Of a stretch of 64,000 nucleotides of DNA, positions 5,942-51,749 are shown piece after piece; positions within the stretch are counted from its first letter, which is position 1, and each line of letters starts with the position of its first letter. Under the pieces are notes generated by a model, which was not told where the DNA came from, did not search any database, and saw only the letters and a program-made list of their open reading frames with translations. The stretch is taken from assembly GCF_022846255.1 (NCBI RefSeq), contig NZ_AP025682.1; one strand, written 5' to 3'. The DNA comes from Escherichia coli. Lineage in GTDB: Bacteria; Pseudomonadota; Gammaproteobacteria; Enterobacterales; Enterobacteriaceae. Made by a program: the position numbers and the translations under genes.

Positions 5942-8262
5942 TAATGGCAATCACCGGTGGTGCTGGCTGCGCAGCAACTGCTTACCGACTTGCGCGTTGC
6001 CAGCAGTTCGATATCCACCCGGCTACGCGCGCGACGCAGCAAACCGATAACCACGATGTTAAACAGGATAACCGCCAGAATGCACACCAGGCTGTAAGTT
6101 GGATGCTGGCTGTAGCTGGCGACCTGATAGAACAATGTTGCCAGTGAGTAAGCAATATTCAGCCCCCACAGGATGGAGAAGCCCATCCAGCCACGGCTTG
6201 ATTCACGCGCGATAGCCCCCATCACCGAGATGCACGGTACGTACAGCAGGACGAAAATCAGGTAGCTGTATGCGGCAGCTGCGCTACCGAATTTCTGATC
6301 CATCACGCCCATCGCCCCGGTACCCATTTCGCCGTCGCCTTTGCTGGCTTCAATGGGGTTCATCAGTACGCTAAGGCTGAAGGTGTCTTTCAGGCTCTGC
6401 CAGGTTTCATCTACCGCACTGAACAGCTCTTCACCGAGGTTAAATTCCGCCGGATTGAACTCTTCGTCCTGAATATTTTCTGCGGTGTAGAGGGTGTTGA
6501 GCGTACCCACCACCACTTCTTTCGCCATGGCACCTGTAAACAGGCCAACCGTTGCCTGCCAGTTATCTTCATGTACGCCAATCGGCTTGAAGACCGGGGT
6601 GATCACCCGGCTGACGGAAGCCAGCGCCGAGTCGTTGATGTTATCGACGATTTTTCCGCTCAGCGAGAAGCTGTTGAAGGCGCTCAGGAAAATGCTGACA
6701 ATGATAATCACTTTACCAGCACGCAGAACGAAGCCTTTCAGACGCTGCCAGGTCTGGATAACCAGGCTTTTAACGTGTGGTACATGGTAGACCGGCAGCT
6801 CCATGACAAACGGCGTCGCTTCACCGCGCATGATGGTGTACTTGAGCATCAGGCCCGTCAGCACCGCCATTACGATACCCAGCATATACAGCGAGAAGAC
6901 CGCCAGCGCACCGTTCTGCCCGAAGAAGGCAGCCGCGAATACTGCGAAGATAGCCAGACGCGCGCCGCAGGACATAAACGGTGCCATCATGATGGTCATC
7001 AGACGTTCACGCGGTGCATCAAGCGTACGTGCGCCCATTACCGACGGTACGTTACAACCGAAACCAACGATCAGCGGTACAAAGGATTTCCCCGGCAAGC
7101 CCAGCGCCTGCATCAGGCGGTCCATCACAAACGCCGCACGCGCCATATAGCCGGAGTCCTCAAGGAAGGAGAGGAACAGGTACATCATGCCGATCTGCGG
7201 CACCAGTGGCAGCACGGTGTTAATACCGCCACCCAGGCCCTGGGCGAGGAAGATAGTCAGCCAGTCCGGGAAGTGGAGCGTGTAGCCAATCCACTGAATA
7301 CCATGCACAAACAGCGCCACGGAACCGACATCAAACAGCGGCTGTAACGCCCCGCCGATGTTGATAGCCAGCAGGAACATCAGGTACATCACAAAGAGGA
7401 AAATCGGCAGACCGAGGAAACGGTTGAGCACGATTTTATCTACCGCAGTGGTGAAACGGCTGGGTTCTGCCGTCAGGGTGTTGCTTACCACATCACAGAT
7501 GGCAGCAATGCACTGGTAACGCGCATCGGCAATGTGCAGCGCCGGATCGTCCATCTCATTACGCAGACGGGCGAGGGCGGCATCCAGATGCTGCGACGCT
7601 TCACCGGCGTAGGCGCGGCTGTAGATATCGCCTTCCAGCATTTGCAGGCCCAGCCAGCGACGTTGTTTCAGCGGGATGTCGGAAGGCATCACTTTTGCCA
7701 GTGAATCTGCTTCGTTGAGTAGCGGCTGTGCGTAATGCACCAGTTCCACATTCTCGTTAGCTTTATAGCGATCAATCGCCAGCTTGAGCGCTTCAATACC
7801 GCGACCACGGGTTGAAACCAGCGGGATCACCGGGCAGCCAAGACGCGCCGACAGAGCATCAATTTCAATACGAATATTTTGCTTCTCGGCAATGTCGAGC
7901 ATGTTCAGTGCCACGATGCAGGGAATGCCGAGTTCCAACAGTTGCAGCGTCAGGTACAGGTTACGCTCAAGGTTAGACGCATCCACCACGTTAATCAGCA
8001 GGTCTGCGTCGCCACTCAAAATGTAGTGACAGGCGATTTGCTCATCGAGCGAGGTCTGCGATGAGATGGTGGTCAGAGAATAGGTGCCGGGCAGGTCCAC
8101 CAGCGTGACCTGATGATCGGTGGTGGAGAATTGCCCTTCTTTACGTTCGACGGTAACGCCAGCCCAGTTACCTACACGCTGACGTGAGCCAGTGAGCTGG
8201 TTAAATAACGTTGTCTTGCCAGAATTTGGATTACCAATTAAGCCAATGGTTAATTTTTTCAT
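5941..8262 (-). CDS. feoB: ferrous iron transporter FeoB (GTPase plus permease)
   Basis: 773-aa product from [18 protein letters not shown] (G1 GTPase motif) at 8262; ORF-track start extended by 4 codons. Confidence 0.93.
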
Positions 8263-8278
8263 TGTTGTTATCACCGTA

Positions 8279-8506
8279 TTAACAGGAAACCGCTTCCACT
8301 TCTAATAAGGCCAGATCTTTTTTGCGTAATACCAGGCTCACACGACGGGTTTCGATATGAATGGGGTCGCCGAGTGGAGCGACGCGCACCACATTAAAAG
8401 AGGAGCCAGGTAACATGCCAAGAGAAAGCAGTTTTTGGCGATATGCCGGGCTGATTTCACGGGAAAAGCCAGTAATTTTCCACGCAGTATCTGGAGTGTA
8501 TTGCAT
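8279..8506 (-). CDS. feoA: ferrous iron transport protein FeoA
   Basis: 75-aa ORF immediately upstream of feoB. Confidence 0.92.
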
Positions 8507-8613
8507 AGGTGCCTACTTGTTTCTCATTAACTGGATAACTACCTCATGGGGCGTTTGACAGCGACATGAGACCAGATGATTTGCCAACGAAGGAGAGATT
8601 AAATAATCAACAG

Positions 8614-8633
8614 TACAATGATAATGAGAATGG
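8614..8633 (-). promoter_or_regulatory. candidate Fur box in feoA upstream region
   Basis: caATGATAATgAgaATgg resembles the GATAATGATAATCATTATC Fur consensus; feoABC is known to be Fur-repressed. Confidence 0.35.
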
Positions 8634-8695
8634 TTTCTATCAGCAATACTTAAAATGTGTGTGAATGTTGGTTTGAATAATAATCTGACTCAATG

Positions 8696-8709
8696 TTGAT
8701 ATGGCTCAA
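8696..8709 (-). promoter_or_regulatory. candidate FNR site in feoA upstream region
   Basis: TTGAT-atgg-CTCAA, one mismatch from TTGAT-N4-ATCAA; feo is known to be FNR-activated. Confidence 0.3.
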
Positions 8710-8834
8710 GGTTATATCGCAGCGAAAATATAATTCGCATGACGAATTATTAGGGCTGGTTAATGTTTAATTAAGGTTTCAGTTGTTAATGAAGTGATAA
8801 ATATTAATGGGATATATTATGAGTTTGCTTGTGG

Positions 8835-8862
8835 AATAAAAAGGCCGGAGATATTCTCCGGC
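8835..8862 (-). terminator. rho-independent terminator downstream of tex
   Basis: ggccggagatattctccggc hairpin flanked by A-tract on + strand (T-tract on - strand). Confidence 0.6.
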
Positions 8863-8871
8863 ACTTTTATG

Positions 8872-8920
8872 TCAGGCAAGGCGTTCGTTGCCAGATGTGG
8901 CGTGAACGCCTAATCGCGCA
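8872..8920. repeat. REP-like palindromic element
   Basis: ggcgttc...gaacgcc inverted repeat with REP-like flanks just downstream of tex. Confidence 0.4.
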
Positions 8921-8943
8921 GGTTTAGGGGCCAGTCCGGGCGT

Positions 8944-11265
8944 TTAACGTTTTTTGCCCATTGCCGCCGCCAGCGCATCCATCATCGCGCTATTACCGGC
9001 AGGCTGCGCTTCACGCCCACGCGGTTTGGCTGCCGGGCGGTTGTTTTGCGGGCGATCGTTACCGCCACCGCGACGGGCGTTGGTTTCGCCAGGCTGCTCG
9101 TCCAGACGCATGGTCAGGGCGATACGTTTACGCTGAAGATCCACTTCCAGCACTTTCACCTTCACAATGTCGCCCGCTTTCACCACGGTATGCGGATCTT
9201 CCACAAACTTGTTCGACAATGAAGAGATGTGAACCAGGCCGTCCTGATGCACGCCAATATCGACAAACGCGCCAAAGTTGGTGACGTTGGTCACCGCACC
9301 TTCGAGGATCATACCCGGTTGCAGGTCGTTCATTGTCTCGACGCCATCGGCAAACTGAGCGGTTTTAAATTCCGGACGCGGATCGCGACCCGGTTTTTCC
9401 AGCTCTTTGATGATGTCGGTTACCGTCGGCACACCGAATTTTTCATCAGTAAAGTCAGACGCTTTCAGGTTACGCAGCTCGCTGCTGTTACCCATCAGAT
9501 CTTTCAGTGCCTGCTGTGTTGCTGCCAGAATGCGTTCCACCACCGGATAGGCTTCCGGGTGGACGGTAGACGCGTCCAGCGGGTTATCACCATGGTTAAT
9601 GCGCAAGAAGCCCGCGCACTGCTCGAAGGCTTTCGGCCCCAGACGGCTCACTTTTAACAGTTGCTGACGGTTCTGGAACTGGCCGTTCTCATCGCGCCAG
9701 GCCACGATGTTTTGCGCCATCATGCGCGTCAGGCCCGCCACGCGGGTTAACAGAGGAACAGAAGCGGTGTTGAGATCGACGCCAACGGCGTTTACGCAGT
9801 CTTCTACTACTGCATCCAGTTTGCGTGCCAGCTGCGTCTGGCTGACGTCATGCTGATACTGACCTACGCCGATAGATTTCGGATCGATTTTCACCAGCTC
9901 CGCCAGCGGATCCTGCAAACGACGGGCGATAGACACCGCGCCACGCAGCGAAACGTCGAGATCCGGGAATTCCTGTGCTGCCAGCTCGGAAGCCGAGTAA
10001 ACCGACGCGCCAGCTTCGCTGACGATCACTTTCTGCGCGGTCACTTTCGGGAACTGCTTCTGCACGTCGAGATAGAAACGTTCGGTTTCGCGGGAAGCTG
10101 TACCGTTGCCGATCGCCACCAGTTCAACATTATGCTTTTCACACAGGGCGGCAACGGTCATCGCTGCTTTTGCGGCCTGCCCGGTATGCGGGTAAATGGT
10201 ATCGGTCGCCACCAGTTTGCCAGTTGCATCGACTACCGCCACTTTTACCCCGGTACGCAGACCCGGATCGAGGCCCATCGTTGCACGCAGTCCGGCAGGG
10301 GCCGCCATCAGCAGATCGTGCAGGTTACGGGCAAAGACGTTGATTGCTTCATCTTCCGCGCGTTCGCGCACGGTGCCCATCAGTTCAGTTTCCAGATGCA
10401 TCAACACCTTGATGCGCCACGTCCAGCTCACCACACCTTTGCGCCAGCTATCCGCCGGGGCATTGTTCAGGCGCAGGCCAAGGTGATCCATGATGATTTG
10501 CTCGCAATAGCTCTCTTTCGGCGGCTCTTCGAACTGCGGATCGGCATTCAGCGAAAGCTGAAGTATGCCTTCGTTACGACCACGGAACATCGCCAGCGCG
10601 CGGTGAGAAGGCACCGTTGACAGCGGTTCGTGATGATCGAAATAGTCGCGGAATTTCGCCCCTTCCTCTTCTTTACCGCTCACCACCGTAGAAACCAAAT
10701 GCGCGTTCTTCCACAGATAATCACGCACTTTCGCCAGCAGCGCGGCATCTTCGGCAAACCGTTCCATCAGGATATAGCGCGCGCCGTCCAGCGCGGCTTT
10801 GGTATCTGCCACGCCTTTATCGGCATCAATATATTGTGCAGCGGCGACTTCTGGCGTGTGTGACGGATCGCTCCACAGCAGATCGGCCAACGGCTCAAGC
10901 CCTGCTTCAATGGCGATTTGCCCACGGGTGCGGCGTTTAGGTTTGTAGGGCAGGTAGAGGTCTTCGAGTTCGGTTTTGCTTAGGGTGGCGTTGATGGCAT
11001 TCGCCAGATCATCGGTGAGTTTGCCTTGCTCGGAAATGGACTTGAGGATCGCCTGACGTCTCTCTTCCAGCTCGCGCAGATAGCTCAGACGCGTTTCCAG
11101 ATTACGCAGCTGCGTGTCATCCAGACCGCCGGTGATTTCCTTACGATAACGTGCGATAAACGGCACGGTATTCCCTTCGTCAAGCAGGCGAACGGCAGCG
11201 TCAACCTGTTCCGGGCGCGCCTGAATTTCACCCGCAATAATGCGGCAGAACGAATCATTCATCAT
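8944..11265 (-). CDS. tex: transcription accessory protein Tex (YhgF), S1 domain protein
   Basis: 773-aa ORF recognised as Tex/YhgF. Confidence 0.93.
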
Positions 11266-22924: not shown

Positions 22925-23243
22925 GCTTTCCCCATCTTACTTAGTCTGTCAGGCGTGGTCAGTCGCACCGGACACAAAACATGATTCTGCGGTTGGCTAT
23001 CGGCAAGCGTGGAGTTTAACTTGAGCATCATTAAGCACATCACAGTAACCGCTGATCATAGCAAACCCTCTGAAGGCGGAATATCAGCAAATTCCTAGAG
23101 TTATTTCAACCTATTGACTTTTAATTTGATTTGAGGACGATTATTTATTAAGTTACATAAATGTAAATAACATGCAATTCACATTGCCGAAAGCGTGTCC
23201 TATATCGCACAATAACCGCTGATTTCACAGCATAGATCCCACG

Positions 23244-38285: not shown

Positions 38286-39449
38286 ATGTTTGTAGAAGCA
38301 TTGAAACGCCAGAACCCGGCGCTGATTTCCGCCGCACTAAGTTTGTGGCAGCAGGGCAAGATCGCCCCGGACAGTTGGGTGATCGACGTGGATCAAGTTC
38401 TGGAAAACGGCAAGCGGCTGATTGAGACGGCGCGGCTTTACGGCATTGAACTGTATCTGATGACCAAACAATTCGGTCGTAATCCGTGGCTGGCAGAAAA
38501 ACTGTTGGCTCTGGGCTACAGCGGCATTGTGGCGGTGGATTACAAAGAGGCGCGAGTCATGCGCCGCGCCTGTTTGCCGGTAGCGCATCAGGGGCATTTG
38601 GTACAAATCCCTTGTCATCAGGTGGTTGACGCCGTTGCACAGGGAACCGACGTCATCACCGTGTTTACTCTCGACAAAGCGCGGGAAGTTTCTGCGGCAG
38701 CGGTGGAGGCCGGACGTGTGCAGTCTGTGCTGCTCAAAGTTTATAGCGACGATGATTTTCTTTATCCGGGGCAGGAGAGCGGTTTTGTACAGCATTCGCT
38801 GCACGAGGTGGTTGCTGAAATCCAGAATCTGCCGGGGCTACATTTGGCGGGACTTACCCATTTCCCTTGCCTGCTTTGGGATGAGGCTGCCGGGAAAGTT
38901 TTGCCGACACCGAATCTTCACACGCTGGTACAAGCACGGGATCAACTGGCGAAATCTGGTATTGCGATTGAGCAACTGAACGCACCTTCAGCGACCAGCT
39001 GCACGTCGCTGCCATTGCTGGCGGAATACGGTGTGACTCATACCGAACCCGGTCATGCGCTGACGGGCACTATTCCGGCAAATCAACAGGGCGATCAGCC
39101 TGAACGTATCGCGATGCTCTGGTTAAGTGAAATCTCCCATCATTTCCGTGGCGACAGCTACTGCTACGGCGGCGGTTACTACCGTCGTGGTCACGCGCAA
39201 CATGCGCTGGTGTTTACGCCAGAGAATCAAAGCGTGACTGAAACATATCTCAACGCCGTGGATGACAGCAGTATCGACTACACCCTGCCGCTGGCAGGCG
39301 AGCATCCGGTAAGTAGTGCAGTGGTGCTCTGTTTTCGCACGCAGATTTTTATCACCCGTAGCGATGTGGTGCTGGTGTCCGGTATTCACCATGGCGAACC
39401 AGAAATAGTTGGTCGTTATGACAGCCTCGGCAACCCTCTGGAGGCGTAA
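38286..39449 (+). CDS. yhfX: alanine-racemase-fold PLP-dependent protein YhfX
   Basis: 387-aa ORF recognised as YhfX. Confidence 0.85.
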   Translation: MFVEALKRQNPALISAALSLWQQGKIAPDSWVIDVDQVLENGKRLIETARLYGIELYLMTKQFGRNPWLAEKLLALGYSGIVAVDYKEARVMRRACLPVAHQGHLVQIPCHQVVDAVAQGTDVITVFTLDKAREVSAAAVEAGRVQSVLLKVYSDDDFLYPGQESGFVQHSLHEVVAEIQNLPGLHLAGLTHFPCLLWDEAAGKVLPTPNLHTLVQARDQLAKSGIAIEQLNAPSATSCTSLPLLAEYGVTHTEPGHALTGTIPANQQGDQPERIAMLWLSEISHHFRGDSYCYGGGYYRRGHAQHALVFTPENQSVTETYLNAVDDSSIDYTLPLAGEHPVSSAVVLCFRTQIFITRSDVVLVSGIHHGEPEIVGRYDSLGNPLEA

Positions 39450-50103: not shown

Positions 50104-50117
50104 TTGATGTAAATCAA
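50104..50117 (-). promoter_or_regulatory. FNR binding site of the nirB promoter
   Basis: Perfect TTGAT-gtaa-ATCAA palindrome about 60 bp upstream of nirB ATG; position consistent with the known FNR-dependent nir promoter. Confidence 0.8.
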
Positions 50118-51488: not shown

Positions 51489-51749
51489 GATTGGCCTGCG
51501 TTCAAAAATAAAATGGCATAGCGGAATATGCCGCGAGCGGGCGATTTTAGGTGATTTTGTGATCTGTTTAAATGTTTTATTGCAATCGGTTGCTAAATTG
51601 CATTTTAAGAGGTGATTTTGATCACAGAATAAAAAGTGATCGTCAGGTTACATATATTTCAGATACGTAAAATTAGGTAAAGGGATGGCCTTGTTCTTGA
51701 AGGCTATTTAGAATCTCTTCACTTGCTTTTTTTCTGCTCTGTTTGTTAA

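Follow-up and report, generated by a model that had tools for sequence, protein, structure and literature searches.

Arrangement and cross-genus conservation of the regulatory sites in the feoABC control region of Escherichia coli

Ferrous-iron uptake is a contributor to gut colonization and virulence, and the feoABC promoter joins iron signals (Fur), oxygen signals (FNR and ArcA) and envelope or osmotic signals (OmpR and RstA) over this uptake, which makes it a textbook example. The operon has been described in Escherichia coli K-12 (Kammler, Schon and Hantke 1993; Myers 2013; Park 2013; Beauchene 2015; Gerken 2020), and the DNA analyzed here is the same locus. Published work has documented anaerobic activation together with repression by Fur, and the Fur repression of feoA is reported as being only anaerobic, because FNR and ArcA are needed to switch the promoter on. 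Several further regulators have been connected with the operon: activation of feoA by ArcA has been published, overexpression of OmpR resulted in a 2-fold rise of a feo::lacZ fusion (Gerken 2020), NagC is listed as a known feoA regulator (Myers 2013), and NsrR binds near feoA by ChIP in both CFT073 and K-12, with a predicted NsrR site 38 bp upstream of the ATG.

The window, i.e. the whole stretch of E. coli DNA that was analyzed, is 64,000 nucleotides long, and all positions given below refer to it. According to its open reading frame list, feoC, feoB and feoA lie on the minus strand and are followed by yhgF (tex), greB and ompR-envZ. The 561 bases around the region match two E. coli chromosomes at 100% identity, 5425 of the 5426 complete genomes of the species have the segment in single copy (annotated as feoA / yhgF), and the MG1655 annotation from yhgF to feoA holds no further feature. 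The yhgF (tex)-feoA intergenic spacer spans 8507-8943 (437 bp), with a REP-like element and a terminator hairpin at its end; the hairpin, at 8844..8862, forms the upstream boundary of the feoA control region.

An earlier, preliminary description had singled out strongly AT-rich DNA upstream of feoA (minus strand, 8506-8279), and the composition bears this out: the G+C content of 8507-8830 (324 bp) is 34.3% versus 52.6% for the 64-kb window, a value as low is found in only 0.33% of 324-bp windows, which form just three clusters over the 64 kb. Calling the whole of these approximately 320 bp a leader was not correct, as they consist mostly of promoter DNA and the transcribed part, counted from the start in Park 2013, amounts to about 106 nt (8612-8507). 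This is the characterized feoABC control region, with published Fur, FNR and ArcA/OmpR sites, and as such it is ordinary and already known. We are highly confident in reading it as the promoter, operator and leader of the ferrous-iron uptake operon feoABC of E. coli, in which a weak promoter is covered by Fur and served by upstream activators. The AT-richness comes from the protein sites and the leader, which are themselves AT-rich, together with the promoter, and an extra layer of control is unnecessary to account for it.

In order to place these elements, we used the feoA loci of 80 Enterobacteriaceae species; for 32 of these, 450-500 bp of upstream DNA went into a 32-genus alignment. The features are given below, starting at feoA and moving upstream.

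8279..8506, minus strand: feoA coding sequence, from the open reading frame list and the RefSeq annotation of identical DNA.
8507..8612, minus strand: 5' untranslated leader of the feoABC mRNA, 106 nt, with the start according to Park 2013.
8512..8518, minus strand: Shine-Dalgarno region AAGTAGG, within the island 8520-8511 that is conserved across genera.
8543..8570, minus strand: candidate mid-leader hairpin CTCATG-N16-CATGAG, weakly supported; the consensus that RNAalifold gave for 10 related leaders has no other helix.
8612, minus strand: transcription start, within 1-2 nt, derived second-hand from Park 2013 Table S6.
8614..8640, minus strand: main Fur operator, reading TACAAT-GATAAT-GAGAAT on the plus strand and overlapping the promoter spacer, the -10 and the start site.
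8618..8623, minus strand: -10 hexamer TATCAT, shared by 29 of the 32 genera; the remaining three have TACCAT or TATTAT.
8641..8646, minus strand: -35 hexamer TTGCTG, 17 bp from the -10, its TTG invariant in 30 of the 32 genera.
8656..8671, minus strand: RstA/OmpR-like box CCAACATTCACACACA, -59 to -44, just upstream of the -35; a candidate motif of Gerken 2020.
8673..8691, minus strand: weaker, upstream Fur cluster, flanked by the FNR site and the -35 (Chen 2007; 10.5 bits, U00096.2 3538006, equal to 8685).
8696..8709, minus strand: FNR site TTGAGCCATATCAA, centered at about -90.5; the Myers 2013 site, found also with our own matrix and conserved in 30 of the 32 genera.
8712..8759, minus strand: variable spacer that separates the FNR site from the distal module, with 31% mean cross-genus identity and a length that differs between clades.
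8757..8780, plus strand: extension of the distal module with the ArcA-box-like repeats TGGTTAATGTTTAATTAA and ATGTTTAATTAAGGTTTC, from the ArcA matrix; about 67% cross-genus identity.
8783..8803, plus strand: distal activator site, which reads as the ArcA box TTGTTAATGAAGTGATAA on the strand that is non-coding for feoA, -191 to -171 (Park 2013).
8844..8862, both strands: bidirectional intrinsic-terminator hairpin at the end of yhgF (tex), from a terminator scan (8-bp stem, 6 G-C pairs).

Across genera, the upstream DNA is organized as four conserved islands (8800-8783, 8709-8696, 8648-8614 and 8520-8511) with poorly conserved DNA between them, and each island corresponds to one published site, namely ArcA/OmpR, FNR, the core made up of -35, Fur box and -10, and the Shine-Dalgarno region. 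Island identities were calculated from one Escherichia sequence and 27 other genera; over these 28 genera the core island (8648-8614) is approximately 90% identical, versus 84% in the first 60 nt of coding sequence. The same division is visible within E. coli, where 64% of the complete genomes are only 90-95% identical to the window over 8507-8843, so that the window represents a minority allele. The differences between alleles are located in the spacer at 8759-8721, upstream of the ArcA site at 8803, and in a 19-bp indel in the REP-like element beside yhgF, leaving the sites intact, and it is the variable spacer at 8712..8759 that carries most of the polymorphism.

The position of the promoter follows from published coordinates. 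Park 2013 placed the ArcA site at U00096.2 3537888-3537908, numbered -191 to -171 relative to a start that had been mapped by experiment (source EcoCyc or Kim 2012), and this numbering puts the start at 3538079, i.e. at window position 8612, 106 nt upstream of the ATG. A start near 8612 fits TATCAT, which is correctly placed for a -10, and in most of the other genera of the 32-genus alignment the -35 reads TTGATG. A sigma-70 promoter scan over both strands of 8400-9000 returned no site above threshold; the scanner missed the real promoter because its -35 matches at 3 of 6 positions and falls below threshold, which is expected for an activator-dependent promoter. The core promoter is thus weak, and activators are needed for transcription.

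The Fur-like segment ATGATAATGAGAAT is located at 8618-8631 on the plus strand. When three consecutive GATAAT hexamers were searched for with up to 3 mismatches, the sole match in the 64-kb window was 8614-8631 (15 of 18 positions, with 0.02 matches expected), and a Fur site this good occurs in 0.5% of AT-matched 324-bp null sequences. The plain 19-bp Fur consensus was rejected as a test in favor of this hexamer array, given that the 13/19 it scores here, in two registers 6 bp apart, is reached at 13 loci of the window and is not distinctive. Taking the start from Park 2013, the operator (8614-8640) extends over the -10 (8623-8618) and borders on the start near 8612, and since the Fur hexamers cover the core promoter, iron-loaded Fur would exclude RNA polymerase by occlusion.

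Published data place Fur at the same position. By information theory, Fur sites scoring 10.9 and 13.4 bits lie at 3538059 and 3538065, corresponding to window positions 8632 and 8626 (Chen 2007; a Fur footprint for the region did not exist at that time), Fur ChIP-seq in CFT073 peaks at 3966911, which is 116 bp ahead of the feoA ATG (3967027), K-12 ChIP-exo and ChIP-seq agree with binding of Fur at feoA, and feoA is up 10.6-fold in a fur mutant. The Fur-box-like segment of the preliminary description is therefore a published Fur site, and its main box was read correctly, but the second Fur cluster near 8685 had been missed. The core of this upstream cluster, GATTAT, is 70-90% conserved across genera and the cluster reaches 11/19 of the plain consensus by our own count; according to the account in Chen 2007, two Fur boxes were already annotated by Kammler 1993.

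On the plus strand, the FNR-like sequence TTGATATGGCTCAA occupies 8696-8709 and matches TTGAT-N4-ATCAA at 9 of 10 consensus positions. We built a position weight matrix from the 62 ChIP-bound sites of Myers 2013 Table S6, with feoA excluded, and with this matrix the site scored 15.4 bits and ranked 2 of approximately 64,000 positions, behind only the nirB site in the same window (about 0.2 sites expected per 64 kb). It also stood above chance against the AT-matched null, where 1.0% of 324-bp sequences held an FNR site this good, and both motifs together, Fur and FNR, were found in 0 of 2000 such sequences. That the TTGAT-N4-CTCAA sequence is an FNR site had been proposed from the letters alone, and it is indeed a published one: Myers 2013 Table S6 lists TTGAGCCACATCAA at U00096.2 3537982, exactly the window position, with 14.6 bits and under a ChIP-seq peak (summit or center at U00096.2 3538050 or 3537996).

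Of the 32 genera, 26 have the FNR site 86 bp from the -10 and a further 5 have it at 85 bp, in spite of intervening DNA that is only about 56% identical. Promoters controlled by FNR are mostly class II, with the site at -41.5, and a site near -90 is unusual. A class II placement was rejected here, as the site is centered at 8702.5 (approximately -90.5) and there is no conserved -10 at 30-35 bp downstream of it. Class I activation by members of the CRP/FNR family, on the other hand, is said to occur from -61.5, -71.5, -82.5 and -92.5 (reportedly shown by Wing, Williams and Busby in 1995). Helix-face activation requires such fixed spacing, and from the fixed FNR-to--10 distance we therefore infer a mechanism of class I type; judging by the arrangement of the sequence, FNR most likely activates from one helix face via the C-terminal domain of the alpha subunit. 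The 85-86 bp distance across the Enterobacteriaceae supports upstream activation that depends on the helix face.

The same unusual position can be read in another way, with two promoters of which one is the Fur-controlled promoter at about 8612 and the other has a second start, located upstream or downstream and used via FNR, ArcA or RNA polymerase alone. A model of this kind has been proposed for Yersinia pestis feoABC, an FNR site at -90 is atypical of a single promoter, and in genomic SELEX the RpoD holoenzyme binds the spacer on its own, the promoter predicted there being another one, TTATCA-15-TTTAAT, approximately 20 bp downstream (Shimada 2014). However, the hexamer that a class II FNR position would require as a -10 reads AACCAA at 8673-8668, is not -10-like and is unconserved, no second promoter was detected on either strand in the sigma-70 scan of 8400-9000, and the distance of the FNR site is fixed relative to the Fur-overlapped -10 and to no other element. 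Myers 2013 also assigned one promoter to feoA. Two promoters at this locus are in our view very unlikely, and we retain the single, activator-dependent promoter starting near 8612.

Further upstream, Park 2013 reported the distal ArcA box with both ChIP-seq and a motif of 17.6 bits. Our leave-one-out ArcA matrix gave TTGTTAATGAAGTGATAA a score of 16.4 bits, the second best of the window and above 99% of the AT-matched nulls, and TGTTAA-like direct repeats are present in it at 11-bp spacing. Read on the feoA strand, 8783..8803 is also the OmpR EMSA motif TTATCActtcaTTAACA: OmpR shifted a fragment with the motif TTATCAtttcaTTAACA, located -294 to -278 from the ATG (Gerken 2020). The adjoining extension at 8757..8780 holds the repeats TGGTTAATGTTTAATTAA and ATGTTTAATTAAGGTTTC, which scored 12.2 and 11.8 bits with the ArcA matrix, both among the top 12 of the window, and its identity across genera is about 67% versus 31% for the spacer that follows. 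With these two further ArcA-like boxes in conserved DNA, the distal module has about double the length of the two-repeat site that is annotated. Clades differ in how far the module lies from the FNR site (45 to 120 bp), and strict phasing of the module is therefore unlikely.

A second OmpR-type motif is found closer to the promoter. The box CCAACATTCACACACA, in a partly conserved patch, aligns with TACATTCCGTCACA of Salmonella, which fits the RstA motif as far as it is quoted in Gerken 2020; there, this candidate motif is placed at -165 to -150 from the ATG, and unphosphorylated OmpR gave no shift with that motif alone. The preliminary description had anticipated control beyond Fur and FNR, and this was right insofar as ArcA, OmpR, RstA (in Salmonella), NsrR and NagC have all been published as additional regulators, but these are neither H-NS nor small RNAs, the two kinds of control that it had put forward.

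H-NS or another nucleoid protein could coat the AT-rich spacer and silence feoABC, with the length and composition of the DNA serving filament nucleation. A G+C content of 34% over more than 300 bp would be suitable for this. The high-affinity H-NS motif, TCGATAAATT, reportedly that of Lang et al. 2007, was searched for with up to 2 mismatches, and of its 74 matches in the window none is located in 8507-8830. The conserved islands are, in addition, all assigned to specific regulators, and the AT-rich DNA that remains is not conserved. Binding data are divided: genomic SELEX revealed an H-NS site in the yhgF-feoA spacer in vitro (Shimada 2014), but the feoA FNR site is listed without ChIP enrichment for IHF, Fis or, by ChIP-chip, H-NS in Myers 2013 Table S6, and the FNR peak there was 0.56 in the wild type versus 0.53 in an hns stpA mutant (both for anaerobic glucose medium only). 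The suggested H-NS control thus has an in vitro site in its favor and, against it, neither in vivo enrichment at the FNR site nor a high-affinity motif; a role of H-NS at feoA is weakly supported, and silencing by a nucleoid filament appears quite unlikely.

The transcribed leader evolves in a way that the sites described above do not predict. Compared with E. albertii and E. whittamii, it has 0-1 substitutions over 106 nt, versus differences of 13-25% at third codon positions of feoA and feoB (binomial p of approximately 1e-7 and 1e-5), and compared with Salmonella its divergence is about half that of third positions. Beyond this clade the leader is not maintained: Enterobacter cloacae is without 71 of the 106 leader nt, the leader of the Enterobacter group is shorter by about 71 nt, and the leader has diverged in Klebsiella and Kluyvera as well. 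The near-invariance of the leader within Escherichia is not explained by the promoter model.

One possible cause is post-transcriptional control, in which feoA translation or mRNA stability would be adjusted either in trans by a small RNA or in cis by a structured element of the 5'UTR. The slow evolution of the leader is compatible with it, and so is the CTCATG/CATGAG hairpin, which is kept in Escherichia and Citrobacter and which, by our own reading, has counterparts in several genera in the form of GC-rich hairpins of other sequence at the same place. The structural evidence, however, points the other way, as leader folding compared with shuffled sequences showed no extra stability (z = +0.38), the RNAalifold hairpin has a covariation term of -0.24 with one pair showing a compensatory change, and no Rfam family was found at threshold over the region. 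Nor is the shortened leader of the Enterobacter group, or its divergence in Klebsiella and Kluyvera, in line with a general mechanism of this type. In published data feoA is unchanged in a ryhB mutant and effects of CsrA on iron-uptake genes are reported as apparently indirect, and our literature search for papers tying feoA to a small RNA found none. Moreover, the constraint could act on the DNA instead, through a downstream extension of the Fur array or through the NsrR site predicted within the leader. Small-RNA control as proposed in the preliminary description finds no support in Rfam, folding, covariation or ryhB data, and we consider post-transcriptional control through the leader to be unlikely.

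More broadly, the leader may carry an undescribed control element, either a hairpin or small-RNA switch of translation or stability, or a DNA operator such as the NsrR site or an extension of the Fur array, although we hold any such element to be doubtful. The constraint could reflect the Fur-array extension (AATAAT, 8602-8607), the NsrR site or, alternatively, constraints on translation initiation. Most of the leader is missing in the Enterobacter group, so that any leader element would be specific to the clade of Escherichia, Citrobacter and Salmonella.

Other candidates around the leader were rejected. A leader peptide encoded by a 24-codon, TTG-initiated open reading frame (8587-8513) has, by our own reading, kept neither frame nor length in Citrobacter (2-nt deletion, early TGA) or in Salmonella, is without a Shine-Dalgarno sequence of its own and ends in the Shine-Dalgarno region of feoA; other small open reading frames on the plus strand had no support. 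A sub-threshold Rfam match to STnc390 at 8810-8876 on the plus strand (29.6 bits versus a gathering score of 50) is on the strand opposite to feoA and is driven by the generic terminator hairpin; STnc390 is absent at the Salmonella, Citrobacter, E. albertii and Klebsiella loci, and nothing was found in a literature search for it. As a separate observation, the AATAAT at 8602-8607 is in phase with the hexamers of the Fur operator.

Taken together, the arrangement can be put into a working model. A weak sigma-70 promoter (-35 TTGCTG, 17-bp spacing, -10 TATCAT, start near 8612) would sit inside an array of Fur hexamers, with a second, weaker Fur cluster adjoining the FNR site. FNR, bound at a near-consensus site approximately 90 bp upstream, would activate this promoter, and ArcA-P and OmpR (with RstA in Salmonella) would use the TTATCA-N5-TTAACA module about 180 bp upstream, in a mode of action that we infer, while the putative RstA/OmpR-like box abuts the -35. 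Of this model, the sequence features and how they are conserved come from the present analysis, and the occupancy and regulation by Fur, FNR, ArcA, OmpR and NsrR from ChIP, EMSA and expression data in the literature. As a discovery the locus carries little weight, and the analysis makes three modest additions to what has been published, namely the FNR-to--10 spacing, the longer distal module and the constraint on the leader.

Comparison with known systems shows how closely the window follows them. The feoABC region of MG1655 is 95% identical over 541 aligned columns, with identical Fur boxes, -10 and -35, a leader identical but for one base, one change in the FNR site (in the non-specific N4) and one in the ArcA/OmpR motif (in its spacer). 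In the feoAB region of Salmonella enterica, the Fur box, the FNR site, the TTATCA-N5-TTAACA module and all spacings are conserved with the window. The RstA motif of Salmonella, TACA-N6-(T/C)ACA (Jeon et al. 2008, to the extent quoted in Gerken 2020), aligns with window 8671-8656, but the aligned E. coli box differs in reading CCAACATTCACACACA, and a fragment with this motif alone was unshifted by unphosphorylated OmpR. The feoABC region of Yersinia pestis (PMC5519574) resembles the window in having an intergenic region of similar length (396 bp) upstream of feoA, a promoter under Fur control and putative sites for FNR and ArcA; in contrast, according to that study its DNA is not significantly similar to that of E. 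coli, and mutations in fnr, arcA and rstAB were without effect on feoABC in that organism. Compared with class I CRP/FNR sites, finally, the feoA FNR site, centered at about -90.5 and with a spacing that is kept within 1 bp across 31 genera, has the constancy that helix-face activation requires; class I activation is a putative mechanism at feoA, and the helical phase is approximate, the start being placed within 1-2 nt.

The 5' untranslated region of feoABC (window 8507-8612) carries 0-1 substitutions over its 106 nt when compared with Escherichia albertii and E. whittamii, whereas feoA and feoB differ by 13-25% at their third codon positions in the same comparison. In Enterobacter cloacae, 71 of these 106 nt are absent, and the leader is similarly short in other members of the Enterobacter group.

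The swine isolate E. coli PEC301 (locus L085, NZ_CM168013.1) matches the window only to base 200 of the 337-base query, i.e. the feoA upstream region, and the matching part is directly followed by the transposase gene of ISApl1 (IS30-family). The insertion point corresponds to approximately window position 8644. In this strain the element thus appears to separate the -35/Fur box and feoA from the FNR and ArcA sites.

Matches to the 19-bp Fur-box consensus were also present elsewhere in the window:

6697-6715, Fur-box-like match within the feoB coding sequence, GACAATGATAATCACTTTA, 15/19 positions
38748-38766, minus strand, Fur-box-like match, GATAAAGAAAATCATCGTC, 15/19 positions

By a crude count against this consensus, the match inside feoB is better than the box in the feoA promoter.

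As positive controls, the scan with the FNR position weight matrix (PWM) recovered two sites, both of which are listed in Myers 2013:

50104-50117, nirB FNR site, TTGATGTAAATCAA, a perfect site
51612-51625, ppiA/tsgA FNR site, GTGATTTTGATCAC

The highest ArcA-box score of the window was obtained at the following position:

23150-23167, predicted ArcA box, AAGTTACATAAATGTAAA, PWM score of 19.8 bits

This predicted box sits between two divergent ORFs, which we take to be igaA (yrfF) and nudE (yrfE). It was not found among 115 of the 128 ArcA boxes of Table S3 in Park 2013.

A repeat-like sequence was noted next to yhgF in the window:

8870-8943, REP-like element between the terminator and the yhgF stop, with a weak naRNA4 match (21.7 bits)

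Relative to K-12 this element contains a 19-bp indel, and the equivalent place in the Salmonella arizonae locus holds a stronger naRNA4/REP match (46 bits, versus 21.7 bits in the window). The distance from the -10 element to the feoA ATG in Klebsiella indica (locus L070) is 246 bp instead of ~115, because its leader carries an insertion of ~130 nt with inverted-repeat ends, a candidate repeat that we presume to resemble the ERIC/IRU-type elements of enterobacteria.
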